A stretch of 64,000 nucleotides of DNA from Puniceicoccaceae bacterium (lineage in GTDB: Bacteria > Verrucomicrobiota > Verrucomicrobiia > Opitutales > Oceanipulchritudinaceae), in assembly GCA_040830765.1 (NCBI GenBank), contig JBFOMH010000009.1, forward strand, positions 64,001 to 128,000, read 5' to 3'. Below, piece after piece: positions 5,811-61,632 of this stretch. Under the pieces are notes generated by a model. The model was not told the DNA's origin and ran no database searches. It saw nothing but the letters and a program-made list of their open reading frames with translations. The position numbers were made by a program, and so were the translations under genes. Each line of letters opens with the position of its first letter. Position 1 is the stretch's first letter.

Positions 5811-6607
5811 GGACCTATCTGGAGCTTCTTCAGCATGTCCTCGAGAACGGTCTGGAGAGGGAGGACCGTACGGGCGTCGGGACCCTTTCCTGCTTTGGAG
5901 CACAAAGCCGTTACGACCTCGGGGAAGGATTCCCCCTTGTCACGACCAAGAAACTGTACCTGCGGGCCATCATTCATGAGCTCCTGTGGTTTCTCAAAGG
6001 GGACACCAACATCAAGTACCTCAATGAGAACCGGGTCACCATCTGGGATGAATGGGCAGACCCCCAAGGCAACCTTGGCCGCGTCTATGGTGCTCAATGG
6101 ACCGACTGGCGCAAGCCGGACGGGGGCAGTGTCAACCAGATCGAAACGGTCATCAAGGCCATCAAGGCCAATCCGGCCAGCCGGCGGCATATTGTCTGCG
6201 CTTGGAATCCCGGGGAGCTGGAACAGATGGCCCTGCCCCCCTGCCATGCCTTTTTCCAGTTCTATGTGAATGAAAAGAAGGGTACCCTTTCCTGCCAGCT
6301 CTACCAGCGCAGCGCCGATCTCTTCCTCGGCGTTCCCTTCAACATCGCCTCCTACGCTCTATTGACGATGATGGTGGCCCAGGTGTGCGATCTCAAGCCA
6401 GGCGAATTTGTCCACACCTTCGGGGACCTGCACATCTACAAGAATCATATCGAACAGGTGAAACTGCAATTGTCCCGGGAACCACGGCCGCTGCCGGTCA
6501 TGCTCATCAATCCGGAAAGGAAGAATATCACCGACTTCGTATTCGAGGATTTCCAGCTGGAGGGCTACAACCCCCACCCGACCATCAAGGCCCCCATCGC
6601 AGTCTAA
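5807..6607 (+). CDS. thyA: Thymidylate synthase
   Basis: [42 protein letters not shown]. Confidence 0.98.
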
Positions 6608-6640
6608 TCTTATTCTTAGCCTTAATCTTAATCTCAATCT
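6605..6640 (+). repeat. Degenerate hexamer tandem repeat (TAATCT x6)
   Basis: TAATCT TATTCT TAGCCT TAATCT TAATCT CAATCT, then CCCCCC and the folA ATG. Confidence 0.85.
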
Positions 6641-6646
6641 CCCCCC

Positions 6647-7126
6647 ATGCCCTCGCCCGCCAACCGTCCCTGGAAAGCCATTGCCGCCATGTCGGAGAAC
6701 CGGGTCATCGGTGCTGACAACAAGATCCCCTGGCACCTTCCGGAGGACTTCAAATGGGTCAAGGCTTGCACCCAGGGAAAGGCCATCGCCATGGGGCGCA
6801 AGACCTTCGAATCGATGGGACGCCCGCTTCCCAATCGCGAGAATATCGTTATCTCACGGTCGGTGACGGAAATCCCAGGATGCGTTGTCCTGCCCTCCCT
6901 TCAAGCCCTCGAGGCCTATGAAACAGATCGGGAAATCTGGATTTTCGGCGGGGCCCAGATCTATGCCGCCGCCCTCGAGCGGATTGGCGAGCTCTACCTC
7001 ACCGTGGTCAAGGGAACCTATGAGGGCGATGCCTTCTTCCCTCCCTTCGAGGACCAGTTTGGCGAACCGGAAACCATCCGCGAAACGCCCGAATTCAGGA
7101 TCCTCAAATACACCCACAAGCCCTGA
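6647..7126 (+). CDS. folA: Dihydrofolate reductase
   Basis: AMSENRVIG, IPWHLPED, MGRKTFESM, PLPNRENIVIS, GGAQIY, GDAFFP. Confidence 0.97.
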   Translation: MPSPANRPWKAIAAMSENRVIGADNKIPWHLPEDFKWVKACTQGKAIAMGRKTFESMGRPLPNRENIVISRSVTEIPGCVVLPSLQALEAYETDREIWIFGGAQIYAAALERIGELYLTVVKGTYEGDAFFPPFEDQFGEPETIRETPEFRILKYTHKP

Positions 7127-7147
7127 TCAGACTTCGTTGGTTTCCCT

Positions 7148-7948
7148 TTAAAGCGCAGCCAGATCGATCTCGGGGAAAATCAGCCGTTCCGGATCGAGGC
7201 ACTCGACCGGCCAAGGGCAATGGCCGTTGCCCATCGCTTCAAGAACACAATCAGGGCGATTGCAGTCCTTGCTCAGGTGCCCCAGCAGGACACGCCGCCA
7301 GCGGGGCTTTTCTACCGAGCAAAGAAAACGGAAGGCAGCCTCGTTGGAGAGGTGTCCATGACGGCCAGTGATGCGCTGCTTGACCGAGTATGGGCGCTTG
7401 TTGTCCTGCTCAAGGAGTGCAGCGTCGTGGTTTGCCTCAAGCACCAGGAGCTGGACGTCGCGCACCATGTCGGCCAGGGCCGGCGGAGCATGACCGAGGT
7501 CTGTAATCCAAGCGAGGCTTCCATGCGGGGAAAACAGGTCGTCTCCACCGGTCCGGAAAGTGAAGCCGACCGGTTCCATGGCATCGTGTGGCAGGAGCAT
7601 GCTCTGGACGGTCAAGTCCTTGTAGGCGAAGGTCGTTCCGGTTTCGAATATCTTCCAGCTGATGTCCCGGTTCAACTTGCTCTGGGCCACCTGGGCTGTC
7701 GCGTAATTGGCAAAAAACTGCAGGTGCCGGTGCTTGGCCAGACCGCGCAGGCCGGCTGTGTGGTCACTGTGCTCGTGGGTCAGGAAGACGGCATCGATGC
7801 TTTCGATCGGCTTGCCGATTTCCTTCAGGAGTTCCTCCAGTCGCCGCCCGCTGAAACCGGCATCCAGCAGGATCCGGGTCTGTGAGCTCTCGATGAGGGC
7901 ACAATTGCCCGAACTGCTGGTTCCGAGAATGCGGAAGCGAAGACCCAT
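7148..7948 (-). CDS. Metallo-beta-lactamase-fold hydrolase, YycJ/WalJ-like
   Basis: SSSGNC, DAG, THEHSDH, PHDA, TDLG, EANHD, GHLSN, HLSKDCN. Confidence 0.9.
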   Translation of the reverse strand: MGLRFRILGTSSSGNCALIESSQTRILLDAGFSGRRLEELLKEIGKPIESIDAVFLTHEHSDHTAGLRGLAKHRHLQFFANYATAQVAQSKLNRDISWKIFETGTTFAYKDLTVQSMLLPHDAMEPVGFTFRTGGDDLFSPHGSLAWITDLGHAPPALADMVRDVQLLVLEANHDAALLEQDNKRPYSVKQRITGRHGHLSNEAAFRFLCSVEKPRWRRVLLGHLSKDCNRPDCVLEAMGNGHCPWPVECLDPERLIFPEIDLAAL

Positions 7949-9059: not shown

Positions 9060-9605
9060 ATGAAGACGAATAAACGCACTTTCCTTATTTGTACGGCGAC
9101 CCTCGCAGGATTGCTCCTGATGGTCCCCCGCATCATCGCAGATTCAGAACATAGTCCCATGAAAGAAACGGAAAAGGCACCCGAATCGATAGACCAGCCG
9201 GACAAACTCGACTCCAGCGACTGGAAGGAGAAGTTGACTCCGGAACAGTACCATATCCTGCGCAATGCCGGAACAGAGCGACCCAATGGCGCCGTCTATG
9301 ACCAGTTCAAAAAGCAGGGCGCTGGAACCTACTACTGTGCCGGCTGTGGGACAAAGTTGTTTTCCTCCGAGCACAAGTTTGATTCCCGTTGCGGTTGGCC
9401 CTCCTTCTGGGACCCGGCGGCCATCGACAGTGTCAAGCTCCGCGTGGATGACAGTCTTGGCATGCGCCGGGTGGAAGTTGTCTGCGCCAACTGCGAAGGG
9501 CACCTGGGACATGTCTTCGAGGGCGAGGGATTCAATACCCCGACCGACCAGCGCTACTGCATCAATGGGACCGTCCTCGTCTTCGTCCCTGAAGACAAGG
9601 ACTAG
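9060..9605 (+). CDS. msrB: Peptide-methionine (R)-S-oxide reductase with N-terminal signal/anchor
   Basis: [38 protein letters not shown]; two CxxC motifs; hydrophobic N-terminus. Confidence 0.95.
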
Positions 9606-10282
9606 ATATCCCGCGCCGCCCAGCGAGCTGCATTGTAGATGACCTTCTGCACCTGCGGGTGGTGGTATATGGGATAGGTTTCATGCCCCGGGCGAAAGTA
9701 GAAGATCCGCCCCTTGCCGCGCGTCCAGCAATTGCCGCTGCGGAAGACTTCACCTCCCTCGAACCAGGAAACAAAGACCTGCTCCTCCGGGGCGGGAATA
9801 TCGAAGGGCTCGCCGTACATTTCTGTATTCACTAGTTCGATACAGTCATCAATCCCGGCGGCAATCGGATGACCAGGGTTGGCCACCCAGATCCTTTCCT
9901 TTTTCCCGTCCTCCCGCCAACGCAGGGTACATTCCGTCCCCATAAGCGAAATGAAGATTTTCGAGAAGTGGCCCGAATGGAGGACAATCAGTCCCATGCC
10001 CTCAAGGACCCGTTGCCTGACCCGCTCCACGATAACATCATCCACCTCGTGATGCGCCCGGTGTCCCCACCAGAGGAGAACATCGGTCCGGTCAAGCACC
10101 TCCTGCTGCAGCCCGTGCTCAGCCAGGTCCATTGTGGCCGTGTTGACGGACAGCCGGTGATCGGGGTCGTGACTTCGAAGTCCCTCAGCGATGGCATTAT
10201 GGATACCGCCGGGATAGACTTCCTGTACCCGCGAATCGTCCTTCTCATGAAGGTATTCGTTCCAGACCAGTGTGCGTATCAT
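9602..10282 (-). CDS. thuA: ThuA-family (trehalose utilisation, GATase-like) protein
   Basis: [57 protein letters not shown]. Confidence 0.88.
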
Positions 10283-12051
10283 GTCCGGTGCTTCATGATT
10301 AGCTTCTGCACACTGTCAAGGGATTGCGTGTTGAAGACATCCCCTGCCGTCAGGCCCGCTTTCCGGGCCGCCTGTACACCGCAGCGCAGATACTCGAGAT
10401 GGTCCGTGTCGTGGGCGTCGGGGGTGATGACACAAGGAACCCCTGCCTCAGCAGCCTGACGCCAGTAGCGCCAGTCCATGTCCATACGCCAGGGATTGGC
10501 GTTGAGTTCGATCATGACCTTGTTGGCGGCGGCCGCCTCAATCACTTGCCGGTGATTGACGGCATAACCTTCACGGCGCAGCAACAGGCGACCGGTAAGG
10601 TGTCCGAGCATCTTCAGGCAGCCAGTATCGGTCTCGATGGCCCGAATAATCCGCCGTGTCATCTCCTCCTCACTCATACCGCTCATTGAGCCATGGACGG
10701 AGAGCACACAGTAATCGAGCTTGGTGGTGATTGACTTCTCGAAGTCGAGGGAACCATCCTTGAGAATATCAACTTCGGAACCAGCAAAGAGGTGGGCCTT
10801 CTCACCTGCTTCCTCATTGAGGACCCGGATCTGTTTGATTTGTTTGAGGAGACGTTCCTCATCAAGTCCGTTAGCCTGAAAACTGGCCTTGGAGTGGTCG
10901 GCGATGCCAATGTAGTCCAGTCCCAGGTCCTTTGCAGCCCGGGCCATTTCCTCAAGCGTGTTGTGTCCGTCCGAAGCCCGGGTGTGGTTGTGAAAGGTGC
11001 CAGTCAGGTCCACATACTCAAGGAGCTCAGGCAAGGAATTCGACTCAGCCAATTCCAACTCGTCCAGACCTTCCCGCATTTCCGGAGTTATGTAGTCCAG
11101 CCCGAGGGCCTTGAAGAGATCCGCCTCCTCCTTGATCCCGGTGCGTGCCAGCGGCCGATCGTAGGGGCGACTGCCCTCGGGTTCCTCCTCGTCCTTGTTG
11201 AAAATCCCCCACTCGGAAAGGGAAAGTCCCTGACTGAGGGCCCGCTGGCGCATCTTGACGTTGTGGTCCTTGGACCCGGTAAAGTGATGCAGGGCAAAGA
11301 CAAAGCGGTCATCGGGAACCACCCTCAGGTCGGCCTGCAAACCGCCATCAAAACGGACCGATGATTTTGTCTCCCCGTGGGCCGTCACCTCCACCACATT
11401 TGGTTGCCGGATGAACCAGTCCATGATCGGACCCGGCTTGGAGGACCCGACAATGAAGTCGAGGTCACCCACCGTTTCCCGGCTGCGACGAAAACTGCCC
11501 GCAACTTCCGCCCGCTCCACCTCGGGCAATGATCGCAGGCCCTCCAGAAGCGGCAAAGCTGTCTCACGCACATCCCACCAGAGGTGCCGCTGGCCATAAG
11601 CAATTCGATTAGCGATTCCACTGAGGATATTTTCTGCCGATTTCTTTCCAAAACCGGGCAACTCGGCGATGGCACCCGATTCACAGGCGGCCTGGAGCTC
11701 ATCAATGGTTTCAATGCCGAGCGACTCATGCACCTTGCGGATCTTCTTCGGTCCGAATCCGGGTATTTCCAGCATCTCAATGAGCCCGTCCGGAATGGAT
11801 TCGCGCAGGTTGTCATAAAAGGGAAGTTCCCCGCTTTCCCGCAGGGTGATGATCTTTTCGGTTAATGCTTTCCCGATTCCCTTGACCTCTCCCAGGCGCT
11901 CTTCCGCGATCAAGGTGTCCAGATCCTCCTCGAGGCTTTCCAAGGCACGGGCGCCCGATTGGTAAGCCCGGACCTTGAACGGGTTTTCCCCGGTCAATTC
12001 AAGCAGGGTACCAATCTCCTCCAGGCGTGAGACAATGTCACGAATTTCCAT
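10279..12051 (-). CDS. polX: DNA polymerase X / PHP 3'-5' exonuclease
   Basis: [10 protein letters not shown], HhH motifs, AGSFRR, GDLD with intact aspartates, [12 protein letters not shown] motifs HNHT..SDG, ADHS, GSEVDI, PDAH. Confidence 0.95.
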
Positions 12052-12095
12052 GGCTCCAATAATGACCACATTTCGGCCATCGGCAAGGGCAGGCT

Positions 12096-13805
12096 TTAAT
12101 CAAGCTCCCGTTGACGGCGCCAGGCAGAAAGGATGTCCTTCAGGAAGGCCCCGCATCCGGGCGGGACATGGCCGCGATCATGGTTTTCAGCGGCAATTGC
12201 AAAGGCGGTTCGCCACTGGGTTCGCAAGGTCCGGGTAGCGCAACGGAGGCTGTTGCGCGGATCGTAGATATGGGTCTCTTCAGAGGTCAGGCCGTTCAAT
12301 TCAATGACGCTCAGGTTCTTTCCGGCCAGCAGTGATGCCTCGTCTGGAACCTTAATATCAAAACGGCCGAAGTAGAAACCTTCATAGGACTGGGCGATGG
12401 CCTCCACCCGCGCGCTCAAGGCATCCGTGATGAAGTGCTGTCCATCGAGGAAAAGCGAGCCACGGGCATGGGTCCCCAGTTGGCCCAATCGGAAAACCTT
12501 GCCTTCAGGAAGGACCGTGTCGAGTTCCTCATCAAAACGGGCAAGGAAGACATCCAGCAAGGCAACAGCCCGTGGATGGGCATGGATAAGGTCCTCGATA
12601 GAATCTTCGCCATTCCCCGTAACGGTCAGCTGATCCTTGATCGTGATGGAGGTGACCCGGCCACGGACTTCCGACGGAAACCGGACGTAGAAAATACCGT
12701 ACTCTGGACCGGGAACATAGGCTTGTAGGATCGCCGGGGCTGCCGTTTTCGACAGCCAATCCCAGGCCTCCGTGTCATTCAGGATGATGCTGACGCCGTC
12801 ACCTCGTTGCCCTTCATCCGGCTTCAGGACAACAGGATAGTCAAGTGCCAGCTCCTCCATGGCACGGTCGAAAGCCTGCCGGCGTTCCTCCTCGCTTCCG
12901 GACTCGATACGGCGCCATTTAGGAATGGCTTCCCCCGCAGCGGAGAGACCCTCGAGAATGCTGCTCTTGCTTTCTCCGAGGAATCCCCCGTGTGGCATAC
13001 TGGGATTGACCACCGTAAACAGGGTCGGTCGCCGGTAGCGGACAAACCCAAGATAGAGGATATAGGGAATCACCAGGGCGTAGACCTGCCACCAGGGCCA
13101 GAATTCCCAGCGGGTCGCCCGAAGCCATTTCCCCTTGAGACGCCGGCGTCCTTTCCACGTGAGGAGTGGCATGCCGTAATGAAATATTAAGTACAGAAGA
13201 AGGCCAGTGGCAAGGAGAGCGGGTATGACCAGAGCCTCAAAGACTTCATATAATTCCAGCAGCTCCCTGCCGATGATGAAGCTGAGTCCGACAAGCAGCG
13301 GCGTCCACAGGGCGGCCGCAAAGGCAAAGACCCCCAGGAACCTGAGGAAGGGGGCATGGAGGGCACCGGCAGCGAAGTAAGTCGCCGTTCGAGTCCCCGG
13401 AATGAACCGGGTTGCCAGGATGAGCCAGACACCGTGGCGCTGGAACATATGCTGGGCATGCAGGACAGCCTTCCTGGAGATAAACCAGCGGGCCCAGCGG
13501 TGCTCAAGGAGGGGACGCCCAAAGTGAAAGCCGAGCCAATAAATGAGGAGGTCCCCGAGGAATATCCCGAGGAAACTGGCCATGACTGCCGAAGCGAAAG
13601 CCAGTTGGCCCGATGCGGCCAGCAACCCGGCACTGATGCAAGCCAGGTCCTCGGAAACAAGTGTTCCCAAGGCAATGCCCAGCATTGTTAACAGTTCCGC
13701 CTGGATCGATTCCATTGAACCGCCTCCCGGTTCAGCGGCCATGGCCAATGCCGCGGTGCTCAAAAAGGTCACCAGCAACAGCAAGGGCTCACGTTTATTC
13801 CGCAT
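12096..13805 (-). CDS. DedA/VTT membrane domain fused to an ATP-grasp ligase domain
   Basis: N-half [25 protein letters not shown] (DedA); C-half [34 protein letters not shown] (ATP-grasp). Confidence 0.85.
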
Positions 13806-14526
13806 ATGGTGGCTCGCGGTGATGGGTTATCTCGACCGGCTCCCTGTACCCCTGCCCTTCGGGTTCCCGGGCACGATAGGTAAACCGGATAGTCCCAGTG
13901 CTGATGAGGAGCTCGATCTGGCTCAGGGTCCTGGCATCGGGACGATCCATGGTCAGGCCATGGGACGGCTTCCCGGGATGGGTACGACGCATAAGTCCGG
14001 CCATGTCCAAAGGTGTTCCGCCAGCGGCATGAAATTGCTCATTCCACCACTGCCGCCTCCATGCGGTGATTGCTTCCGGCTGATGGGATGAAGTGGTCCA
14101 AAAGTCATTTGAGGGATTAATTCGATGCATTTGCTTCCCATCCCACTCAATGCCGAGAACCGCCTCCGGATCCAGAATGAAGAGGAAAAAAGGCGCGTAA
14201 CTACTGAAATCTTCTTCCTCCAACCAAACAGCCGCTTCCTGTGCAGCCATTGACGCCACCTTTAAAACAAGTTCTCCGCGGCTTCGGTATGAATCAGAGG
14301 GATCCATCGCGGAACCTGGGTAGTTATTCAGCAAGGCCACGGCAAAGCCACGGGTGGAGGCCGCAAACCAGGTCCCCCCACCCTGAGGATCGCACGCATA
14401 AATCAGGGGAACCGGATCAGCCGGGTGCAAGCGCGGGTCTTCAGCCAGCGGCCGGGAGCGCTGTTCATCGCGGTTGAAGCAGATCAGGAATCCCGCTTCG
14501 GCCTCTCCCCAAGCCAGAGTGCACAT
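13795..14526 (-). CDS. NRDE/TANGO2-family Ntn-hydrolase-fold protein
   Basis: MCT N-terminus (Cys2), NRDE motif, DPQGGGTW, LLN, SRGELV. Confidence 0.9.
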   Translation of the reverse strand: MCTLAWGEAEAGFLICFNRDEQRSRPLAEDPRLHPADPVPLIYACDPQGGGTWFAASTRGFAVALLNNYPGSAMDPSDSYRSRGELVLKVASMAAQEAAVWLEEEDFSSYAPFFLFILDPEAVLGIEWDGKQMHRINPSNDFWTTSSHQPEAITAWRRQWWNEQFHAAGGTPLDMAGLMRRTHPGKPSHGLTMDRPDARTLSQIELLISTGTIRFTYRAREPEGQGYREPVEITHHREPPYAE

Positions 14527-14529
14527 CCT

Positions 14530-15039
14530 TCAAGCACCCTTCTTTTCCAGATAATGAATCGTCGAAGGGGCAACGCCAAAGCCTTCCGGAAAGTCGCGGA
14601 CCCCAAACCGGGTCGCGATGGAAACAACAAGGGCATAGTGATGAATGCTGTGGCTGAGAAGGAACTGCAGCTCGCGACGCAATGTAGTCTGGCTCCATGT
14701 GGAATCCCCACCATCGTCCATCCGTATCTTCAGGGGACTGTCCAGTACGCTTGTTCGCATCGATTCAAGCTTATCCACCAATTCCTGCAAAACGCCAATG
14801 GCTGCTTCTCGATCCACCTCAATCGCCTCATCCCGCTGGCGGTCATCGTAGTCGACCTTCCCGGTTGGCTGCCCGCTGACGAAAGCCAGGTAATGGTCCA
14901 GGTTATGCCGCAGATGGCCGCCGATGGAACTGTTGAAAAGTTCCGGACACTTTCGGGAATAGAGCTCGGCCGGGAGTTTCTGCAGAAATTCGATGCCCTG
15001 CCCGAGGCAAGCCAGGTTGGCGTCAATTAAGGTGTTCAT
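14530..15039 (-). CDS. DinB/YfiT-family four-helix-bundle protein
   Basis: SIGGHLRHNLDHY, DYDDRQR, RELQFLLSHSIHHYAL, FGVAPST; start moved to ATG 15039. Confidence 0.85.
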   Translation of the reverse strand: MNTLIDANLACLGQGIEFLQKLPAELYSRKCPELFNSSIGGHLRHNLDHYLAFVSGQPTGKVDYDDRQRDEAIEVDREAAIGVLQELVDKLESMRTSVLDSPLKIRMDDGGDSTWSQTTLRRELQFLLSHSIHHYALVVSIATRFGVRDFPEGFGVAPSTIHYLEKKGA

Positions 15040-15156
15040 TGGCGGGTATGAGGGAACAGTTAAGCGATCCATTCCCATGAAATCAACCTTCGAAGCTTCC
15101 ACCATACCCCCTTGCCATTTGCCGCAATTGCAATTTTATTCCCCCTTTTCAAGACA

Positions 15157-18182: not shown

Positions 18183-19079
18183 ATGAAAATGAAATTATCA
18201 CTCATCCTCACGGCATGCACGCTGCCCATCGCATTAAGCGCTCAAACTGTTTTCAATGACAGCTGGGCAGACGGTTCCCTTGCAGCAACCGAGGGCACGG
18301 ACATTCCCTGGTACACAACCACCTCGACGAGCGCACTTGAAGTCGGGACAGGATTCATGGGCCTGGTCAGTGGCTCTTCCGGACGGGGCATCCACGGGCT
18401 CTACACACCAACCGCCCTGAATGTTGGTGACAGCCTGACCTTGACCTACACCTTTACAACCCCGGCAACCATTGGAACCAGCCGCTCCGACGCATTGCGT
18501 GTCAGCCTGGCTAATTCACTGGGCCGGGCCATCGACAGCAACCAGACCCTCTCATCCGGTAGCCCGAACTTCCTCTTCGATGATTTACCCGCCTACATGT
18601 CTTCCTTCGACATTGCAACGGGAACAGAAGATGTCCGGATCCTCCGCCACCGGGAAGACCCGCTGATTGACGATGGTCGCTTCATGAGCACGACCGGTGA
18701 GTGGAACACTCTGGACGACAGTGCCAATGATGGCTACTCCTTTGCCGCTGCAACCGAATATGTCGGTGTCCTCACCATCACCCGTTCCGGGGCTGACGAA
18801 ATGACCATTTTCAGTTCCATGTCCCAGGGAGCAACCCTGATGGCCAGCTTCTCGGCTGTCGACGGAACGGGTTCTATTCCGACGACGTTTGACATGCTCG
18901 GTTTTCAGGTGAATTCCAACACCTTCGGTACCAGTAACTCACCGGATACCGCAGATAACGGAATCGACTTCACCAACATCAACCTGGTTTACACACCGGT
19001 ACCGGAACCGTCGACCTACGTCTTCCTCTTCGGTGCGCTGGCCTTTGTGCTCGTGTTCCTGCGCCGCCGCAGAAGTTGA
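18183..19079 (+). CDS. PEP-CTERM sorting-domain surface protein, Ser/Thr-rich
   Basis: Signal peptide; C-terminal VPEPST, TM helix, RRRRS. Confidence 0.95.
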   Translation: MKMKLSLILTACTLPIALSAQTVFNDSWADGSLAATEGTDIPWYTTTSTSALEVGTGFMGLVSGSSGRGIHGLYTPTALNVGDSLTLTYTFTTPATIGTSRSDALRVSLANSLGRAIDSNQTLSSGSPNFLFDDLPAYMSSFDIATGTEDVRILRHREDPLIDDGRFMSTTGEWNTLDDSANDGYSFAAATEYVGVLTITRSGADEMTIFSSMSQGATLMASFSAVDGTGSIPTTFDMLGFQVNSNTFGTSNSPDTADNGIDFTNINLVYTPVPEPSTYVFLFGALAFVLVFLRRRRS

Positions 19080-26470: not shown

Positions 26471-27724
26471 TTACTCGCGGTTGAGTTCCGGTTCCGGCCC
26501 GGCATCGGGTGCCCCCTGGGCCTTCGCCCGGGCCCGCAAACGCAAGCCCTGCAGCCGAATGAATCCACTCGCATCGTCCGGATTGTAGTCACTCATGACA
26601 CCTTCCATGGAGGCGATATTTTCATCGTAAAGGGAATAAGGCGACTTGCGGCCAACGGTGGTAATGTTGCCCTTGTAGAGCTTGAGGCGGATCGTTCCAG
26701 TAACCTTCTCCTGACTCTTGTCGAAGAAGGCCTGCAAGGCTTCGCGCTCCGGAGCATACCAGAATCCGTTGTAGATCAGTTCCCCGTACTTCGGAATCAA
26801 GCTGTCGCGCAAATGCTCCAGATCCCGGTCCAAGGTCAGGGTTTCCATCTGCTTGCGGGCATGCAGCAGGATGGTCCCGCCCGGGGTCTCATAGACGCCA
26901 CGGCTCTTCATCCCGACAAAGCGATTTTCCACGATATCCACCCGCCCGATGCCATGCTTGCCAGCCAGGGCGTTCAGTTCCTTAAAAGCGCTGCCTGGAC
27001 TCAACTTTGTTCCATTGACGGCAACACAATCGCCGGACTCGAATTCCAATTCGACATACTCCGGCTCTTCCGGTGCATCCATCGGGTCAGCCGTCAGCTT
27101 GAACATGTCCTTGTTCTCGTCAGTCGTCGGGTCGAACCAGGGATCCTCCAGGATACCTGCCTCATAGGAAATATGGAGCAGGTTGCGGTCCATTGAGTAG
27201 GGTTTGCTGGCTGAAGCCTCGACATCGATGTTCTGTTCCTGGCAGTAGGCGATCATCTCTGAGCGACCAGGGAACTGCTTGCGGAACTCCGGCATGCGCC
27301 AGGGGGAAATGATCTGCAGGTCCGGCGCAAGGGCGGCATAGGTCAGCTCAAAGCGAACCTGGTCGTTGCCCTTCCCAGTGGCCCCGTGGGCGACGGCATC
27401 CGCCCCTTCCTTGCGGGCGATGGCAATCTGCGCCTTGGCAATGAGGGGACGGGCAATGGACGTCCCGAGGTAATACTGATTCTCGTAAAGGGCGTTGCCG
27501 CGCATCATCGGATAGATGAAATCGCGGGCAAATTCCTCCACTAGATCGACCGTGTAGTGGGCACTGGCGCCCGTGGCCTTGGCCTTTTCGGCGAGGCCGT
27601 CCAGTTCCTCCTCCTGCCCGACATCAGCCGCAAAGGTGATGATCTCGGCGTTGAAGTGGTTCTTCAGCCAGTTGACGAGTACGGAGGTATCGAGACCGCC
27701 GGAGTATGCCAGAACTATTTTCAT
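26471..27724 (-). CDS. argG: Argininosuccinate synthase
   Basis: [48 protein letters not shown]. Confidence 0.98.
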
Positions 27725-27738
27725 GATGATAAAAGGAT

Positions 27739-28695
27739 TTAGACGTTCGCGCTGTCAGAAAGGAAGGAAAGAATCGCCTTCTGGGCATGCAAGCGATTTT
27801 CTGCCTGATCGAAGACAATGCTTTGTCCGCTCTGGTAAACTTCAGCGGAAACTTCCTCCCCTTCATGGGCCGGAAGGCAATGCATGAAGAGGGCATCCGG
27901 CTTGGCAGCAGCCATCAAGGTGGTATTTACCTGGTAGGGGGCCAACTCCTGCAGGCGCTGGTCGCGTTCCTCCTCATCGCCCATGCTGACCCAGACATCC
28001 GTGTAGATAACATCGGCTCCGGAAGCAGCATCCATGGGATCAGTTGTGAAACGGTAGGTCTTTTCCAAACCCGCCTGTTCCAACCATTGGTCGACCGCCG
28101 TATCCGGGGTGTAGCCTGCCGGACCTGTGAGAACTACTTCCATGCCGGCCATGGCGCCACCAAGAATAAGGGAATGAGCCATGTTGGAGGCACAGTCGCC
28201 GGCAAAGACCAGCTTGCGGCCTTTTAGGGATTCCAACAATCCACCAACATTCCCCCAGCGCTCGGCCATTGTCAGGAGGTCCGCCACGACCTGGCAGGGA
28301 TGGAGGGCATCCGTCAAAGCATTGACTACCGGGATACCCCCTTCATGGGCAAATTCCTCAATGAAGCTGTGCTCAAACGTCCGGATGATGACACCATGGA
28401 TGTAGCGCGAAAGCACCTTGGCGGTGTCGGCTACGGTCTCACCACGACCGGTCTGCATCCGGTTCTGGTCAAGGATCATCGCATGGCCACCCAGCTCATT
28501 GATGCCAACCTCAAAGGAGACACGGGTCCGGGTTGAGGACTTGTGGAAGAGGAGTGCCCACGTTTGTCCAGCCAGCGGCTTGAAAGAGCCCTGGCCCCGG
28601 GAGGCCTTCAGCTCTGCAGCTAGTTCAAGGGCTTCCCCCAGCTGGGCCGGGGTCATGTCGGTTATCTTAAGAAAATGGGAAAGCTTGTTCATCAT
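27739..28695 (-). CDS. argF: Ornithine carbamoyltransferase
   Basis: [31 protein letters not shown]. Confidence 0.96.
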
Positions 28696-29924
28696 TCAGA
28701 ATGGGTTCCAAAAACAAAATCGAGAATTTCTAGTGAGGTATCGAGTTCCTCCTTACTGACAGTCAGTGGAGGCATCAGGCGAATGGCGTCGGTCCCCCCA
28801 CGCACGGTCAGGAGCCCGTTTTCGCGGAGGCGGTTGACCCATGGCACGGGATCCCCCTTGACCGTCAAGGCCATGTGGTATCCGAGCCCGCGGGTTCCGC
28901 AAAGATGGTCTGGATGGCGCTTCACGAGATCCTTCAAGGCAGAAATCCAAGGTTCGCTGAGATCATTGACCTTCTGCAGCAATTCTTCCTCTTCAATGAC
29001 ATCAAGCGTAGCCAGGGCTGCTGTACAGGCCAGTGGCGTCCCGCCAAAAGTCGTTCCGTGGGAACCCGGCGTGAAGAGGTCCGCAAAGGCCTCACTGACC
29101 CAGCCGGCTCCAATAGGGAATCCCCCGCCGAGGCCCTTGGCCATGCCGATGGCATCGGCCTTGATCCCGGCATGCTCGAAGGCAAAGAACTTTCCGGTCC
29201 GGCCGATGCCGCACTGCACCTCGTCGATGAGAAGGAGGATATCCTTCTCGTCGCAAAGGTCGCGCAGCCCCTTCAGGAAATCTGTAGTGGCAGGATGGAT
29301 ACCGCCTTCACCCTGAATGGACTCAACCATGATCGCAGCTACCGTTTCGTCCACCTGCTCCCGGAAGCTTTCGACATCATTGAACCGCGCATGCCGGAAT
29401 CCATCCAGCAAGGGCCCAAACCCTTCCTGGACTTTCTTCTGGGGGGTCGCGCTCATGCCGCCGTAGGTCCGGCCATGAAACGCGTTCTCCGCCGTGATGA
29501 CCCGGTAGCACTGGCCTTCTTCTCCCCCGGACTTCTTGCGGCCCCACAAACGGGCCAGCTTGATCAGGAACTCGTTGGCCTCCGCCCCGCTGTTGCAGAA
29601 GAAGACCTTCCCCTCCCCTGCTTGCTGGCAGAGCCGCATGGCCAACTCCCCCTGCTGGGGAACATGGAAGAGATTGCTCACATGTGCCAGTTGGGCAGCC
29701 TGATCCTGCACCTTCCCAACCCAGTGAGGATGCGAATGGCCGACCGCGGTCACCGCAATACCACTCAGGAAATCCAGATAGCGTCGGTTCTCGGCATCCC
29801 AGACAAAACTCCCCTCGCCCCGGACCAAGGTCATGGGTGCTGGGCCATAGTTCTTCAGGACGTGAGCATCATAGAGGGCCGCAACCTTCTTCGATGTCAC
29901 CTTACTCGCTGTTCTTGATGGCAT
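28692..29924 (-). CDS. argD: Acetylornithine aminotransferase
   Basis: NSGAEANE, FHGRT, IQGEGG, DEVQCGIGRTG, AKGLGGGFPIG, HGTTFGG; inside the arg operon. Confidence 0.93.
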   Translation of the reverse strand: MPSRTASKVTSKKVAALYDAHVLKNYGPAPMTLVRGEGSFVWDAENRRYLDFLSGIAVTAVGHSHPHWVGKVQDQAAQLAHVSNLFHVPQQGELAMRLCQQAGEGKVFFCNSGAEANEFLIKLARLWGRKKSGGEEGQCYRVITAENAFHGRTYGGMSATPQKKVQEGFGPLLDGFRHARFNDVESFREQVDETVAAIMVESIQGEGGIHPATTDFLKGLRDLCDEKDILLLIDEVQCGIGRTGKFFAFEHAGIKADAIGMAKGLGGGFPIGAGWVSEAFADLFTPGSHGTTFGGTPLACTAALATLDVIEEEELLQKVNDLSEPWISALKDLVKRHPDHLCGTRGLGYHMALTVKGDPVPWVNRLRENGLLTVRGGTDAIRLMPPLTVSKEELDTSLEILDFVFGTHSE

Positions 29925-29938
29925 GGCTATCTGTTGGA

Positions 29939-30823
29939 TTATTTCACGGCGTGGACAATTTCCGTACCCACACCCTTGTCAGTAAAGATTTCCAGGAGAA
30001 TGCTATGGGGCATCCTTCCGTCGATAAGGTGAACCCGGTGAACACCACGGCTCATTGCATTGACCGCGCTTTCCACCTTGGGCAGCATCCCGGATCCAAT
30101 AATGCCCGCGTCCCGCAAACCGGGAACCTCCGCTTCAGAAACACTGGAAATCAAGGTTTCCGGATCCTTGGGGTCCCGCAAAAGGCCGGGTACATCACAG
30201 AGGTAGACCAGGCGCCGAGCGCCAATGGCGGAAGCCAGATGTGCCGCGGCCACATCGGCGTTAACGTTGTAGAACTGGCCCTTCTTGTCCTGGGCCACCG
30301 GTGACACAATCGGAGTGTAGCTTTGTTCGAGGTACTTCAGGAGCCGTCCTGTTTCTACACTGGTGATGTCACCAACAAAGCCGAGATCAACGGGATTGCC
30401 ATCCCGGTCCGTTTCAAGGCGCTGACACCGGAACACATCCTGGCCTTTGACGCCGATGGGTTTTCCCCTGCGGGTCTGGATGTTTTCACAGATACCCAGA
30501 TTGATGCCCTCGTTCAGGGTCCGCTCGACAATGCCGATGGTCTTCTCGTCGGTGTAGCGCAGCCCGTTCTTCCAGACCGGTTCTATGTCAGCTTCCGCCA
30601 TCGCCTTGTTGATCGCCGGACCACCTCCATGGACCACGATGACGTGTATCCCGACAGTCGCGAGAAAGACAAGGTCGGTTGCCACACCCACCCGTGCGGC
30701 CTCGGTATCCATGAAGGACCCACCGAACTTAACCACAAAGATACTCCCCTTGAACTGCTGGAGGTAAGGCAACGCCTCCATCAGCACCTCGGTTTTTGTC
30801 TCAATATCAATATCGACCGGCAT
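29939..30823 (-). CDS. argB: Acetylglutamate kinase
   Basis: EALPYL, VVKFGG, VHGGGP, NVNAD, GMLPKV, LLEIFT. Confidence 0.96.
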   Translation of the reverse strand: MPVDIDIETKTEVLMEALPYLQQFKGSIFVVKFGGSFMDTEAARVGVATDLVFLATVGIHVIVVHGGGPAINKAMAEADIEPVWKNGLRYTDEKTIGIVERTLNEGINLGICENIQTRRGKPIGVKGQDVFRCQRLETDRDGNPVDLGFVGDITSVETGRLLKYLEQSYTPIVSPVAQDKKGQFYNVNADVAAAHLASAIGARRLVYLCDVPGLLRDPKDPETLISSVSEAEVPGLRDAGIIGSGMLPKVESAVNAMSRGVHRVHLIDGRMPHSILLEIFTDKGVGTEIVHAVK

Positions 30824-30825
30824 GA

Positions 30826-32064: not shown

Positions 32065-32082
32065 GATTGATGCCCCCTACGC

Positions 32083-40641: not shown

Positions 40642-40785
40642 AGGGTAAAAACTTGGCGAACTTGGCAAATGCCGCAACTGAACTCAAGAAAGAATACCAT
40701 GCCGGCGATGGCCTTTACGTTGAGTCTTCCCGGATCGGTTTTTTTTCTTGCCATGCCTGATTTATGTGCCTTCTTTCGACCGCTT

Positions 40786-43866: not shown

Positions 43867-43926
43867 TGGTGATCCTTTCGTAAGGTACTCTCGTTTGAGT
43901 GAAGGTTGTTTGTTAGTTGTTAAGCG

Positions 43927-44436
43927 TTATTGGCTTGATCCGGTTGTAGTTAAAAAGGACTTCTGCACAGTGGCTGTGCCGATGGACAAGGAGTAACCCT
44001 TGCTGGTCACATCTCCGATTTTGACCTCGTAGACGACCCCCTGAATTTCCGCCTTGAAGGTATCGCCTTCAGCAATGGTGCGGCCACTGGCCAATTGCAG
44101 GACACCACGGTCCCCCATCACCAGGCTGCCGAGCGGATTGAACTGACGGCTGATTGCCTTGAGGGCCTGGTCGTCAGGGAGCACTTCGCCAATGCCGGTG
44201 GAAACCGGTACATCCGCAAGATCTTTGGTTACCGGGGCCGGTATTTCCTTCTTGCGGACGCTGAAAGGCGAACGGATGTTACTGTAGTCGCCTTCCTCAG
44301 CATCGACGTTTTGCAAAGTGGCCTGCATGCCTGAAAGCATACTCTGTCGGGAATCGGCCGGCGTGATGACTTGTGAGAGGCCGGCGTGGCTAGCCAGGCA
44401 CATCACCATCGAGAAAAGAATGAATGCTTTATTCAT
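43927..44436 (-). CDS. PilP-position exported protein
   Basis: Signal peptide, RSPF motif, beta-rich C-domain; directly upstream of the secretin. Confidence 0.55.
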   Translation of the reverse strand: MNKAFILFSMVMCLASHAGLSQVITPADSRQSMLSGMQATLQNVDAEEGDYSNIRSPFSVRKKEIPAPVTKDLADVPVSTGIGEVLPDDQALKAISRQFNPLGSLVMGDRGVLQLASGRTIAEGDTFKAEIQGVVYEVKIGDVTSKGYSLSIGTATVQKSFLTTTGSSQ

Positions 44437-58025: not shown

Positions 58026-59774
58026 ATGAAAATTATCTGGCGCGTCTCACAATACCTCTTTCGTTATCCGCTCTTATTTGGTCTGGTCCAAATGCTTGCT
58101 GTAGGGATGACGCTGCTGACCATCGCCATTCCCAAGTTCATCGAGTCCATTTTGACCAACATCCAGACTTCATCGGAAATAGCCCCCCTACTCTACGGCA
58201 TCCTGGGAATCATTGCGCTCTACCTTGGCAGCGAAATTTTCAACGGGTTGCGCATTGTCTGCAACAACACCCTTGAACAAAAGGTGCTCTTCGACATGCG
58301 CCAGGACCTGCACCGCAAACTCTTGATTCTCCCGGTCTCCTTCTATGATCAGAGGAAGTCGGGCGAAATTTCCTCCCGGGTAATTGAGGATGTGATGGCT
58401 GTGGAGCGGGCGCTGCTGGACGGGACGGAACTGGGTGGTCGTGCCCTGGTCATGATCGTCGGGGTAACGATCATGCTCTTCCTGACTAATCCCGTCCTGG
58501 CCTGGTTTGTCTTTCTGCCAGTGCCTATCCTGATCATTCTTGGAATCTACTATGCGAAGGGATCCAGGAAGGTCTGGAAGGGTGTCCGCGAAGCCGCCGG
58601 CGACCTCAATAGCCTGCTCGTTGAAGATATTCAAGGCAACCGGCTGATTCAGACATTTGCCCTGCAGAAGAGGGAGAGCCGCCGCTTTGACACCAAAGCC
58701 GCCCTACTACGGAAGCGGACATTGCGCGCGATGTTTCGCTGGGCCGCCTACAGTCCGGGAACCACTTTCCTGACTAACCTCGGTATTGTCGCCGTCATCG
58801 GTATCGGGGGATGGATGATCCTCGATGGAGAAAGCTCCTTCGGCTTTCCCCAGCTAATCGCTTTTCTCATGTACGCCAACATGCTGTACATGCCGATGGG
58901 ACAGCTTCACGGCATCAATCACCTGCTGGCGGCTGGGAAGGCTTCCGGCGAGCGGGTTTTCGAAATTCTCGATGCCGAGGTCGAGGTGGAAAACCCGGCC
59001 CAGCCCAAGCCCTTCCCCGAAGGCCCCCTCCATGTCCGGTTCAACGCAGTTTCATTCCAGTACCCGGGACGACCCGAAGTACTGACGAATTTTGAACTCG
59101 AACTGCCTCCCGGCAAGGTCACGGCACTGGTTGGCCATACCGGTGCCGGGAAGAGCACCGTTGCCAATCTCGCCATGCGAACCTATGATGTCACGGGCGG
59201 CTCCATTACCGTTAATGGCATCCCCATCGAGGAACTCGACCTGGAGGAAATCCATTCCAACATCGGTCATGTCGCCCAGGACCCATTCCTCTTTGAGGGC
59301 ACGGTCAGGGAGAATCTGCTTCTGGCCCGTCCCGAAGCCAACGAGCAGGACCTCATTGACTCGTTGGATGGTGCCTGCGCATGGGATTTTGTGCAAAAGC
59401 TCCCCGAGGGACTGGATACCAATATCGGCGAAAAAGGCATCCGTCTATCCCAGGGGGAAAAGCAACGCATGACCATCGCCCGGGTCCTTCTGAAGAATCC
59501 ACCCTTTGTCATTCTGGACGAAGCCACCGCCAGCGTGGACACCATTACCGAGCGACTGATCCAGCAGGCCCTGGAAAATCTTACCGCTCACCGGACAGTG
59601 CTGGTTATTGCCCACCGGCTCTCGACCGTCCGCAAAGCCGACCAGATTGTCTGCATGAAGGAGGGAGCGATCATTGAAATCGGCTCCCATGAGGACCTCA
59701 TCCTGCAGGACGGGCACTACGCCAAACTCTGGAGCTACCAGAACGATCTCATCCCGGAATCTGTCAATCTCTAG
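58026..59774 (+). CDS. ABC exporter, fused TMD-NBD (MsbA/Sav1866-like)
   Basis: Six TM segments; GHTGAGKST, AQDPFLF, LSQGEKQR, ILDEAT, IAHRLST. Confidence 0.94.
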   Translation: MKIIWRVSQYLFRYPLLFGLVQMLAVGMTLLTIAIPKFIESILTNIQTSSEIAPLLYGILGIIALYLGSEIFNGLRIVCNNTLEQKVLFDMRQDLHRKLLILPVSFYDQRKSGEISSRVIEDVMAVERALLDGTELGGRALVMIVGVTIMLFLTNPVLAWFVFLPVPILIILGIYYAKGSRKVWKGVREAAGDLNSLLVEDIQGNRLIQTFALQKRESRRFDTKAALLRKRTLRAMFRWAAYSPGTTFLTNLGIVAVIGIGGWMILDGESSFGFPQLIAFLMYANMLYMPMGQLHGINHLLAAGKASGERVFEILDAEVEVENPAQPKPFPEGPLHVRFNAVSFQYPGRPEVLTNFELELPPGKVTALVGHTGAGKSTVANLAMRTYDVTGGSITVNGIPIEELDLEEIHSNIGHVAQDPFLFEGTVRENLLLARPEANEQDLIDSLDGACAWDFVQKLPEGLDTNIGEKGIRLSQGEKQRMTIARVLLKNPPFVILDEATASVDTITERLIQQALENLTAHRTVLVIAHRLSTVRKADQIVCMKEGAIIEIGSHEDLILQDGHYAKLWSYQNDLIPESVNL

Positions 59775-61632
59775 GCTGTCTGGATTTCTTCCGGAACGGA
59801 TTGGGGGCCGGTTGCTTCTGGGAACGGGACTTATGGAAGGCCAGGAAATGACGGGCACCCTCAGTTCCCATGTATTTCTCGAGAATTCTCACCGGTGTCC
59901 TCCGTAAATCAACCAGCATCAGCCCATCGAGGGCGTCATTGAAAGCCGGATCCACATTGAAGCTGAGCAAGGTTGCGTTGAGTTTCAAATACTGGCGCAA
60001 AAGGACCGGCACCCCCTTCTCCTCCCGCTCAATTTCCGATATGAGGGCGGAGACATCATCGATGTCCCGAACGGAACGGCGAAAGGATGACTTGTCGAGA
60101 GAACCAAACGACCGGGACCTCGCCGGTTTCCGCGGCTTCACCTTGGAAGCGAAGACAGGATCCAGGTTGTGCTCCTTGAGATACGCCACCATCAGGTTCT
60201 TGGAAAGGCTCTGGTACTCCTTGCTGATGCTGACAGGTCCGAAGAGCGTGCAGTGTTCCGGATGGCGGACGATGAATTGTCCGATCCCCTTCCAAAGAAG
60301 CCCCAGGGAGAGCGGCTTGCGCTGGTATTTTTCAACGACAAATGAGCGGCCCAGCTCGATCGCCGGATTGATCGAGGAAAGCACTGCCGTCTTGATACGG
60401 AACAGGGTCGTTGTGTAGAGGCCGTGCTTGCCATGTTTGGCGAGAATTTCATCCGTCAGTCCGAGGCGGTAGGCACCGACTATCTCCCGTTCCTCGCGAT
60501 TCCAGATGAAAAGGTGCCAGTAGTCGGAATCAAATTTGTCAATATCGGTTGACTGCCCGGTCCCCTCCCCGACTGCCCGAAAGGTTATTTCCCGCAAGCG
60601 GCCCAGCTCCAGCAGGATATGCGGAATCTGGTCGGCCTTGGCCGCATAGACCACAAAGGCAGCGTGTTCGGCCAATACGGACTCCCGAGGCAAGTCAGCC
60701 AATTCCTCCTCCAGCTTTTCGACTGGCTGGGCGGGTGTGATTGGTTTTCCAGAATGGGCCCGCCGGAGATCCGGGGCAAAGACTGTTTTGTCCGCTACCT
60801 GGCGGTTTTGCAGGATGTAGGTTCGCAAACGGAGAAAGTCCATGACCTCCCGATGGGAACGGAAGCGCTCAAGCCGTCTGGCTGAAATGGGATTGCCGAC
60901 ACGAACCTCGATGACCCGGTTCTTGGCCCGCAGCATTTCGCGTGGGAGAAGGGCTGTCCGGAGCCTTGGATGAAGAAGCCCGGCGACTTGGAAAAAGATG
61001 GAGTTGTGCCCCTTGAAGTAGACCGGCACCACGGCAGCGCCGCTTTTAAGGAGCAGGGGTGCGAGGTTTTCGGCCCATACAGGATCGCTAACCCGGCGAG
61101 AGCCCCACTTCAAGTGAGAGACCGTTCCGGACGGGAATGTGGCCAGGGCGTGACCATCCTTCAACCAGCGCAAGCTGTCCTTCATCCCCTTGAAATTTGC
61201 CTTGGCCGCACCAGGGCCTCCGAAAGGATCGACATAGAAGCAGCGACCGCCCATGTCATCGACCCGGGAAAGGAGATAGTTGGCGAGGAACATCCCATCA
61301 TCCCGCACGCGGTCCAGCATGGACCCAAAGACCAGACCGTCGACGCCCCCATAGGGGTGGTTGGCGACAAGGAAAACAGGACCAGTCTTTGGAATTCGCT
61401 GCAGATCCGCTTCACTGACCTTGTACCGGACACCAAGAACCCCAAGCCCCTGATCAAAGAAGCCGGCCTCGCTGCTTTGGCGGACGTCAAGAAATTGCCG
61501 ATAGTGCTCGTTCAGGCTGGAGATACGGAGCAACGGCTCCATTATCTTCCCGGCAATCCGGAAGAATGGCCGCTGCCATGGACGGCGGGCCAATTCTTGG
61601 AAATCGGCAACTCGGGGTTCAGTATCAGGCAT
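59764..61632 (-). CDS. PlsC-type acyltransferase + GNAT N-acyltransferase fusion (OlsF-like)
   Basis: N-domain ANHPYGGVDG and FPSG; C-domain GRLREITFR.VGEG, DKFD..Y.HL, VGAYRLG, ELGRSF, LFGPVSIS, PVLLRQY, FNVDPAF. Confidence 0.88.
   Translation of the reverse strand: MPDTEPRVADFQELARRPWQRPFFRIAGKIMEPLLRISSLNEHYRQFLDVRQSSEAGFFDQGLGVLGVRYKVSEADLQRIPKTGPVFLVANHPYGGVDGLVFGSMLDRVRDDGMFLANYLLSRVDDMGGRCFYVDPFGGPGAAKANFKGMKDSLRWLKDGHALATFPSGTVSHLKWGSRRVSDPVWAENLAPLLLKSGAAVVPVYFKGHNSIFFQVAGLLHPRLRTALLPREMLRAKNRVIEVRVGNPISARRLERFRSHREVMDFLRLRTYILQNRQVADKTVFAPDLRRAHSGKPITPAQPVEKLEEELADLPRESVLAEHAAFVVYAAKADQIPHILLELGRLREITFRAVGEGTGQSTDIDKFDSDYWHLFIWNREEREIVGAYRLGLTDEILAKHGKHGLYTTTLFRIKTAVLSSINPAIELGRSFVVEKYQRKPLSLGLLWKGIGQFIVRHPEHCTLFGPVSISKEYQSLSKNLMVAYLKEHNLDPVFASKVKPRKPARSRSFGSLDKSSFRRSVRDIDDVSALISEIEREEKGVPVLLRQYLKLNATLLSFNVDPAFNDALDGLMLVDLRRTPVRILEKYMGTEGARHFLAFHKSRSQKQPAPNPFRKKSRQPRD

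Follow-up and report, generated by a model that had tools for sequence, protein, structure and literature searches.

A widespread DinB, NRDE/TANGO2, and DedA::ATP-grasp gene module as a candidate system for tailoring ornithine-lipid-type aminolipids

Ligases of the ATP-grasp type, such as the G domain of the cyanophycin synthetase CphA1, GshF, RimK, and Ddl, activate the carboxylate of a larger substrate and add a small amine to it; we know of no ATP-grasp ligase that acts on a membrane lipid. Lipid head groups are modified in another way by MprF, an aminoacyl-phosphatidylglycerol synthase fused to a flippase, which uses aminoacyl-tRNA and not ATP. For ornithine lipids, a 2026 review describes that cerilipin forms in Gluconobacter cerinus when taurine is attached, in an ATP-dependent reaction, to the carboxylate of the lipid, states that the gene is unknown, and names OlsC, OlsD, OlsE, and OlsG as tailoring enzymes, these being hydroxylases and a methyltransferase (PMC12971839). 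In Vibrio cholerae, the putative four-gene operon VCA0649-VCA0646 ends in a functional OlsF, VCA0646, and the section reporting its expression alone in E. coli describes unmodified ornithine lipid as the product (PMC12186959). Here we describe three adjacent genes of a Puniceicoccaceae bacterium, located in a stretch of 64,000 nucleotides (nt) of contig JBFOMH010000009.1 (positions 64,001 to 128,000; hereafter the window), that encode a DinB-like protein, an NRDE/TANGO2-like protein, and a DedA domain fused to an ATP-grasp ligase. We propose, at roughly even confidence, that this trio represents, in this genome, a widespread module for the tailoring of aminolipids of the ornithine-lipid type, that is, N-acyl-amino-acid lipids.

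In the open reading frame (ORF) listing of the window, the three genes are co-directional on the minus strand in the order DinB-like, NRDE/TANGO2-like, DedA::ATP-grasp. The DinB/YfiT-fold protein (Pfam DinB_2) is encoded at 14530..15105, where the longest ORF has 191 amino acids (aa) and the probable start lies at 15039 (M23). It is followed by the gene of the NRDE/TANGO2-family protein at 13795..14526 (243 aa, Pfam TANGO2), which begins with Met-Cys, and by the fusion gene at 12096..13805 (569 aa). Within the fusion protein, a hydrophobic helix (residues 5–27) precedes the DedA/VTT membrane domain (residues 31–214, 13164..13715, Pfam VTT_dom), and the ATP-grasp ligase module occupies residues 225–569 (12099..13133), including an aromatic membrane-interface segment (WEFWP...) flanked by Lys and Arg. 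The original prediction, made from the sequence of this locus, had called the genes tightly coupled, which the coordinates bear out: the DinB ORF ends at 14530 and the NRDE gene starts at 14526, leaving a 3-nt gap, while the end of the NRDE gene at 13795 overlaps the start of the fusion gene at 13805 by 11 nt. The motifs it quoted are all present in the translations, namely HLRH and SHSIHH in the DinB protein, MCT (with Cys2) and NRDE in the second protein, and LGTHARG in the fusion.

The ligase family to which the fusion belongs is large, with 997 matches among 8000 scored candidates, at least 591 species genomes that carry it, and 2562, 1897, and 1034 clusters at 50% identity for E values of at most 1e-3, 1e-10, and 1e-30, respectively. 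From these genomes we sampled 80 loci from 80 species with flanks of 10 kilobases (kb). Loci with the order DinB, NRDE, and DedA-ATP-grasp, the last with or without a preceding alpha/beta-hydrolase domain, come from at least seven phyla: Verrucomicrobiota, Desulfobacterota, Acidobacteriota, Gemmatimonadota, Planctomycetota, Calditrichota, and KSB1. Searches by tblastn with the window proteins located NRDE at 46 and DinB at 49 of the 80 loci. With family representatives as queries, the 65 loci that have at least 2600 nt upstream disclosed DinB at 46, NRDE at 41, either at 53, and both at 34, always upstream of the ligase gene and on the same strand. The synteny counts rest on tblastn since simple ORF calling over-extends in high-GC loci; this had produced spurious DinB-NRDE and four-domain fusions in L032, L067, and L077, which were dropped. 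The original prediction had treated the three genes as one system, and the survey confirmed that they form a single conserved unit, a real module that is syntenic far beyond close relatives.

The neighbourhood of the module points to aminolipids. All ORFs of the 80 loci were clustered and representatives were scanned with Pfam and NCBIfam. Recurrent neighbours include a GNAT protein (Pfam Acetyltransf_5) with OlsB as its best NCBIfam match (124–155 bits), a PlsC-type acyltransferase that matches OlsA best, and a fused version of both acyltransferases that matches OlsF best (377–430 bits). All 23 adjacent N-acyltransferases scanned match the OlsB or OlsF models best. The usual order is OlsB-OlsA-DinB-NRDE-hydrolase/DedA/ligase, on the same strand in several phyla. 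At 52 well-flanked loci, defined by at least 4700 nt upstream and at least 3600 nt downstream, an OlsB/OlsF-type gene is present at 28 (27 of them within −5 to +2 kb) and an OlsA-type gene at 22. No lipid-synthesis family other than the ols type was seen among the recurrent neighbours of the 80 loci. The module resembles the known OlsBA/OlsF tailoring enzymes in being encoded with ols genes in operons and, presumably, in using the finished or lyso lipid as its substrate; no ATP-grasp, DedA, Ntn-type, or DinB protein is among those enzymes. The putative V. cholerae operon is similar in that it closes with an OlsF gene.

The same association was observed across whole genomes. In Acidobacteriota (121 genomes), an OlsB-type gene, detected as PF13444, is present in 13 of 14 ligase-positive genomes versus 12 of 107 ligase-negative ones, and in 10 of the 14 it lies within 5 kb of the ligase; in Verrucomicrobiota (151 genomes), the corresponding counts are 17 of 17 versus 78 of 134. 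One-sided Fisher tests give 7e-10 and 2e-4, respectively, values that are overstated as related genomes are not independent. Where Desulfobacterota genomes carry the module away from an ols gene, four of five have an OlsF-like gene elsewhere. The window also contains such a gene, 46 kb from the trio: an OlsF-like bifunctional aminolipid synthase (59764..61632, minus strand, 622 aa) that is the only PF13444 match in the genome. Its Pfam Acyltransf_2 and Acetyltransf_5 domains represent the architecture of an O- plus N-acyltransferase, it matches the NCBIfam OlsF model (NF052615) at 382.5 bits, under the cut-off of 620, and its product is the presumed supplier of the lipid substrate. This distant gene, the aminolipid link as a whole, and the alpha/beta-hydrolase domain of most family members had no part in the original prediction.

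In Verrucomicrobiota, presence of NRDE and DinB is nested within presence of the ligase. Among the 151 Verrucomicrobiota genomes, the ligase occurs in 17, Pfam TANGO2 in 14, and the module-type DinB in 14; the latter two sets are the identical 14 genomes, all of them ligase-positive, and neither gene is found in the 134 ligase-negative genomes. In 11 of the 14, the ligase has NRDE on its own strand no more than about 3.5 kb away, and DinB adjoins NRDE in 13, among them the three whose DinB-NRDE pair is separate from the ligase. In the Acidobacteriota, NRDE was counted with a profile of the module NRDE, as a genome search with Pfam TANGO2 missed the gene of G151 that hmmscan detects. Full-length matches to this profile (E ≤ 1e-35) occur in 10 of the 121 genomes, eight of them among the 14 that are ligase-positive and two not, while 18 further genomes have weak matches to the N-terminal half only, which are other paralogues.

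The membrane part of the fusion is a DedA domain by its Pfam match (PF09335, 4.4e-17, 63.1 bits versus a cut-off of 33.9). Residues E52, D53, D85, R133, P136, G137, and R139, the last four forming an R-x-x-P-G-x-R motif, are invariant in 76 sequences; conserved membrane-embedded acidic and basic residues of this kind are important for function in E. coli YqjA. DedA proteins have been linked to the transport of phospholipids and undecaprenyl phosphate, and the best NCBIfam match is UptA, at 69.5 bits far under its cut-off of 250. The ligase/DedA pair could accordingly act on another membrane substrate, such as the head group of a phospholipid like phosphatidylserine, a polyprenyl-linked intermediate, or lipid A, and have no more than regulation or operons in common with the ols genes during membrane remodelling. 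The separation of the module from ols genes in the window and in many Verrucomicrobiota would agree with this explanation, which we consider rather unlikely: the enrichment of PF13444 in ligase-positive Acidobacteriota, the same-strand OlsB-OlsA-DinB-NRDE-ligase order in several phyla, and the lack of another recurrent lipid-synthesis neighbour all argue for an aminolipid.

The C-terminal part of the fusion received no ATP-grasp call from Pfam in the 569-aa protein, and the NCBIfam cyanophycin synthetase model matched residues 314–408 only (2.6e-8, 32.5 bits versus a cut-off of 877). A profile of 76 family sequences searched against the PDB recovered CphA1 at 3.3e-7. The AlphaFold2 model of the fusion (mean predicted local distance difference test score, pLDDT, 86.0; predicted template modelling score 0.71) matched CphA1 best in Foldseek (7wae, 2.2e-10), followed by CphA2, GshF, and Ddl, with 367 PDB matches at E ≤ 0.001. 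Pairwise alignment with Synechocystis CphA1 (7lg5) over residues 311–513 brought the ATP-binding Lys segment, the lid insert, FGRFD, and IELN into register, so that the CphA/GshF-like insert suspected in the original prediction indeed has its counterpart in CphA1. K328, R481-x-D483, and E502-x-N504 are invariant in the 76 sequences, and from Ddl we take K328 to bind ATP and the R-x-D and E-x-N residues to be catalytic or to bind Mg2+. The module ligase therefore shares with CphA1, GshF, Ddl, and RimK the fold, the ATP-binding Lys, R-x-D, and E-x-N, and with CphA1 an alignable lid insert (...VLPEG...GTHARG). It groups, however, with no characterised ligase; the nearest, the CphA1 G domain, has 18–22% identity, and the module enzyme differs from all four in being membrane-tethered, fused to DedA, and devoid of an N-terminal substrate domain.

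Hydropathy and loop charges place the N-terminal helix at residues 5–27 and the DedA helices up to residue 214. Residues 214–237 contain eight Lys or Arg, and 238–256 are aromatic, fall under transmembrane-grade hydrophobicity, and are followed by RYRR. By hydropathy and in the AlphaFold2 model, no N-terminal substrate-binding (pre-ATP-grasp) domain was found, residues 215–296 being the interface segment plus short helices; the N/G/M architecture of CphA1 is not reproduced either, as the fusion protein has no Mur-ligase-like domain. We infer that the ligase sits at the cytoplasmic membrane interface and that the interfacial segment replaces the missing substrate domain. Stand-alone ligases of 366–395 aa cover residues 225–569 of the fusion and begin exactly at the interface segment.

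The best 150 family representatives fall into a few architectures by length: 77 proteins of 701–1000 aa join an alpha/beta-hydrolase to DedA and the ligase, 52 of 451–700 aa are DedA-ligase proteins as in the window, 16 of 331–450 aa are stand-alone ligases, 3 of at most 330 aa are fragments, and 2 above 1000 aa are longer fusions. The same three architectures (stand-alone, DedA-fused, and hydrolase-DedA-fused) are seen in the Atlas. A hydrolase domain was detected at 49 of the 71 loci whose upstream flank measures 1100 nt or more, and in most family members it carries GxSxG, Asp, and His. The window protein is without this domain and retains all ligase residues, whereas the related locus L007 has the order DinB-NRDE-hydrolase/DedA/ligase-PolX; the hydrolase domain has been lost in the lineage of the window. 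Two metagenomic predictions, P0121 (1158 aa) and P0262 (1130 aa), contain NRDE, alpha/beta-hydrolase, DedA, and ATP-grasp in a single ORF; they may represent genuine fusions, or overlapping genes merged by a frameshift. The N-terminal anchor of the family, and the cytoplasmic-type NRDE ahead of the hydrolase in these two predictions, suggest that the hydrolase domain is probably periplasmic where present, a step that we regard as weak.

The NRDE protein matches Pfam TANGO2 (PF05742) at 1.2e-10 (42.4 bits versus a cut-off of 22.6), a match that covers the N-terminal half only (residues 1–122, profile positions 1–128 of 257); against human TANGO2 itself, phmmer gave E = 0.1. C2, R19, D20, E21, G51, W53, N67, and S82-R83-G84 are invariant in 28 of 28 module NRDE sequences, and N18 of the NRDE motif is kept in at least 90% of them. 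The module-type NRDE constitutes a distinct subfamily defined by full-length profile matches, other bacterial paralogues matching in the N-terminal half only. It resembles human TANGO2 and Shewanella HtpA in Pfam family, N-terminal Cys2, NRDE motif, GGTW, and SRG, and differs from them in that its match to the Pfam profile stops after the N-terminal half. For human TANGO2, a 2026 structure paper describes a large amphipathic cavity that would suit substrates above 500 Da, suggests that the protein is a Cys-Ntn hydrolase, likens it to bile-salt hydrolase, acid ceramidase, and NAAA, proposes Cys2, Asn25, Arg26, and Asp27 as the catalytic set, and states the substrate as unknown (PMC13044924). 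Because Cys2 and the N-R-D-E motif are kept across the 28 module sequences and this paper proposes equivalent catalytic residues, we suggest that the module NRDE protein is an amidase or transacylase acting on a lipid amide.

The NRDE protein could instead be a heme-trafficking protein like Shewanella HtpA, its genomic neighbourhood being incidental. HtpA, the only bacterial TANGO2 homologue studied, was reported as a heme-trafficking protein, with heme binding by both HtpA and TANGO2 (PMC10470608), and this counts against an aminolipid role for the module. The TANGO2 structure paper calls the heme interaction nonspecific (PMC13044924). Among the conserved neighbours from ORF clustering of the 80 loci, no heme or cytochrome c maturation gene was found. 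With Cys2 and the NRDE motif kept as expected for catalysis and NRDE nested within ligase presence, heme trafficking seems very improbable here. The module does supply a genomic context for TANGO2, as the original prediction had anticipated.

The DinB protein matches Pfam DinB_2 at 3.8e-7 (31.1 bits versus a cut-off of 24.8), and its AlphaFold2 model (pLDDT 90.9) matched four-helix-bundle structures of the DinB/YfiT type best in Foldseek, with 3dka on top (2.9e-4) and template modelling scores of 0.52–0.59 by query and up to 0.77 by target. H67, H152, H155, H156, R66, R89, R91, R144, and E145 are invariant in 33 DinB sequences, and the spacing of the His residues resembles what we take to be the three-His metal-site triad of YfiT. 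The original prediction pointed to the thiol chemistry of many DinB relatives, but the best fold matches are uncharacterised DinB/YfiT structures only and lend this no support. A soluble pathway for a low-molecular-weight thiol or for detoxification would assemble the same proteins differently, as a GshF-like ligase, a DinB S-transferase, an EgtC-like NRDE amidase, and a DedA exporter. GshF is indeed among the top fold matches of the fusion, and mycothiol S-transferase and OvsA appear among the weaker DinB matches. We nevertheless find such a pathway improbable: the ligase is membrane-tethered and without an N-domain, and the conserved neighbours (ORF clustering, 80 loci) are lipid acyltransferases with no cysteine ligase or thiol-biosynthesis gene among them. 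Thus, of the alternatives offered by the original prediction, lipid-linked amide chemistry gained support from the linkage to OlsB, OlsA, and OlsF genes, a thiol conjugate did not, and nothing points to undecaprenyl phosphate.

Position 15039, the end coordinate used in the original prediction, corresponds to M23 of the 191-aa DinB ORF, its third in-frame ATG. Homologues align from residue 17–26 onward only, the AlphaFold2 model is disordered before residue 25, and the 60–70 nt upstream of M23 are conserved in four Puniceicoccaceae genomes without the reading frame being kept; for these reasons 15039 is a likelier start than 15105. The conserved stretch (15040-15111 of the window), shared by the window, L002, L004, and L005, consists of a box, TGGCAAGG(N)GG, and about 60 nt upstream of M23. 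As its reading frame is not kept, it probably serves both the trio and the divergent ribBA gene as a promoter or leader. An Rfam search of this conserved upstream region returned a chance match only (E = 0.19). Scans for promoter-like sites (4 versus 2.5 ± 1.6 in shuffles) and terminator-like sites (5 versus 5.8 ± 2.8) were uninformative.

Taken as an aminolipid-tailoring system, the module could work as follows. The OlsF-like enzyme of the window would make an acyloxyacyl amino-acid lipid that, like OlsB/OlsF-type aminolipids in general, keeps a free alpha-carboxylate on its head group. On the cytoplasmic membrane face, behind the last DedA helix, the ATP-grasp domain would phosphorylate this carboxylate to an acyl-phosphate and join a small amine or an amino acid to it, producing a second amide bond and a longer head group. 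DedA might present the lipid to the ligase, flip it to the outer leaflet, or both. DedA is preceded, in most other lineages, by a fused alpha/beta-hydrolase that is probably periplasmic; the protein of the window has lost this domain. NRDE, with Cys2 as its N-terminal nucleophile, would act as an amidase or transacylase and cleave or exchange an amide of the lipid for editing or turnover, and the three-His DinB protein would be its metal-dependent partner. The lipid carboxylate is the suggested ligation site because the nearest relatives of the ligase likewise extend a C-terminal carboxylate and because the N-domain is replaced by a membrane-interface segment. Like MprF, such a protein would join a cytoplasmic head-group-modifying domain to a membrane domain that moves the product, with the differences that ATP would be used instead of aminoacyl-tRNA and that the folds and the lipid class are others. 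Cerilipin formation is comparable in its chemistry: an ATP-dependent amide on the ornithine-lipid carboxylate is exactly what would be expected of a membrane-tethered ATP-grasp beside ols genes; the amine is taurine there. The 80 loci listed include none from Acetobacteraceae.

The direction of ligation could also be the reverse. The ATP-grasp domain would then activate a small acid or a free fatty acid and acylate the side-chain amine of an ornithine or lysine lipid, or make an N-acyl amino acid. Since the 23 linked synthases are all OlsB/OlsF-like, the lipid would bear a free amine and could offer it equally well, which weakens the case for the carboxylate, and the hydrolase domain of most members, with its GxSxG, Asp, and His, could release a fatty acid. 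ATP-dependent N-acylation of ornithine has a precedent in OlsH, as described in the review (PMC12971839). The window protein, however, keeps every ligase residue in the absence of a hydrolase, and a membrane-interface segment in place of the carboxylate-holding N-domain fits a lipid carboxylate. The nearest structural relatives, moreover, extend the carboxylate of a large substrate with a small amine. We therefore assign this reversed polarity a small probability.

Several further observations weigh against the module being an aminolipid-tailoring system. The module's members are known from genes alone. DinB occurs without NRDE at 12 loci and NRDE without DinB at 8, so neither is obligatory, and 5 of the 52 well-flanked loci have none of DinB, NRDE, and OlsB. 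All adjacent synthases score under the NCBIfam equivalog cut-offs, and their amino-acid specificity is not fixed by the score. The trio of the window has no ols gene next to it: its neighbours are the divergent ribBA and PolX, with the OlsF-like gene 46 kb off. The co-occurrence in Verrucomicrobiota is weak because PF13444 is common there (95 of 151 genomes), and the related genomes are not independent. Finally, PF13444 has no match in ligase-positive G223 (Acidobacteriota) and G276 (Desulfobacterota).

Among the papers listed by a literature search that covered main texts, none joined DedA with ATP-grasp, or aminolipids with DedA, DinB, or TANGO2. Ornithine lipid and ATP-grasp were met together only in the reference list of one review, and the listed papers combining TANGO2 with ornithine were clinical. 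The module is conserved and, by this search, unpublished, with components from known superfamilies and a function read from genomic context. Metatranscriptomic contigs from three runs of one study and one run of a second match the region at 100% identity. One of these RNA-library contigs bridges the PolX/ligase junction; those of three runs end at 15024-15038, beside the M23 start, and a fourth contig runs past it. These contigs are weak evidence for expression of the trio, as they show neither strand, transcript ends, nor a single transcript, DNA carry-over is possible, and uncovered stretches are uninformative. Contigs over PolX and ThuA have a greater stated depth than those over the trio, depth not being a reliable measure.

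Directly downstream of the trio, PolX (polymerase beta-like plus PHP, 596 aa; 10279-12069, minus strand) starts 26 nt past the ligase gene, and ThuA (9602-10282, minus strand) overlaps PolX by 4 nt. By tblastn, PolX is found at 5, ThuA at 2, and RibBA at 5 of the 80 loci, in close relatives only, and the adjacency of PolX is limited to such relatives. At other loci, the ligase gene is sometimes followed by a DoxX protein or an exported HExxH protein (10 of 71 loci). The exported protein, 220-260 aa long (L060:11693-12349, L038:11639-12361, and others), occurs mostly at Acidobacteriota-type loci; a family search in Pfam and NCBIfam returned weak M48/SprT (HExxH) similarity only. In 10 Desulfobacterota loci, a membrane protein of about 240 aa always precedes (DinB-)NRDE-DedA/ligase (L017:8010-8732, L010:8416-9123, and eight more) and has no Pfam or NCBIfam family, and an ATG22/MFS transporter lies on the opposite strand beyond the module. 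The gammaproteobacterial locus L033 carries, upstream of OlsA-DinB-ligase, a ferric-reductase-type membrane domain fused to Rieske together with a second membrane protein (5989-7843); related genes are present at L028, L066, and L071, and they may represent an oxidative tailoring step. Loci L042, L047, L053, L074, and L076, labelled Heliomicrobium or Clostridia, have the gene order of Blastocatellia records (L074 versus L060), and the taxonomic labels of these metagenome-assembled genomes may be wrong.

Elsewhere in the window, an MsbA-like ABC exporter (ABC_membrane plus ABC_tran, 582 aa; 58026-59774, plus strand) is convergent with the OlsF-like gene, their 3' ends overlapping by 11 nt, and may be a lipid exporter partner. 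A complete argC-argJ-argB-argD-argF-argG operon (26474-33105, minus strand) is ordinary housekeeping and a source of ornithine. The window further encodes a PEP-CTERM-tailed protein (18183-19079, plus strand), an exosortase of the EpsH type (39619-40677, minus strand), and a secretin with four unannotated genes upstream (42139-46693, minus strand).

Through the module, a bacterial TANGO2 homologue whose occurrence is nested within ligase occurrence gains a defined lipid context, and the substrate question of human TANGO2, which is mutated in TANGO2 deficiency disorder, thereby becomes testable in bacteria. The module also offers a gene candidate for an orphan reaction, the ATP-dependent formation of an amide on the ornithine-lipid carboxylate, and a specific candidate cargo for a DedA domain. 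More speculatively, and as a possibility that we consider doubtful, the proteins could constitute a complete make-flip-trim pathway across the membrane yielding dipeptide- or amine-capped aminolipids, the ancestral task of TANGO2/NRDE proteins being the hydrolysis or exchange of amides on N-acyl-amino-acid lipids. If true, an ATP-grasp enzyme would for the first time have a membrane lipid as its substrate, the type of enzyme still missing for cerilipin-like lipids would be identified, and the result would point to N-acyl amide lipids, not heme, as the substrate class of human TANGO2. As the family is large and spread over many environmental phyla, sediments, soils, and host-associated communities may commonly contain such an as yet unassigned class of lipids.

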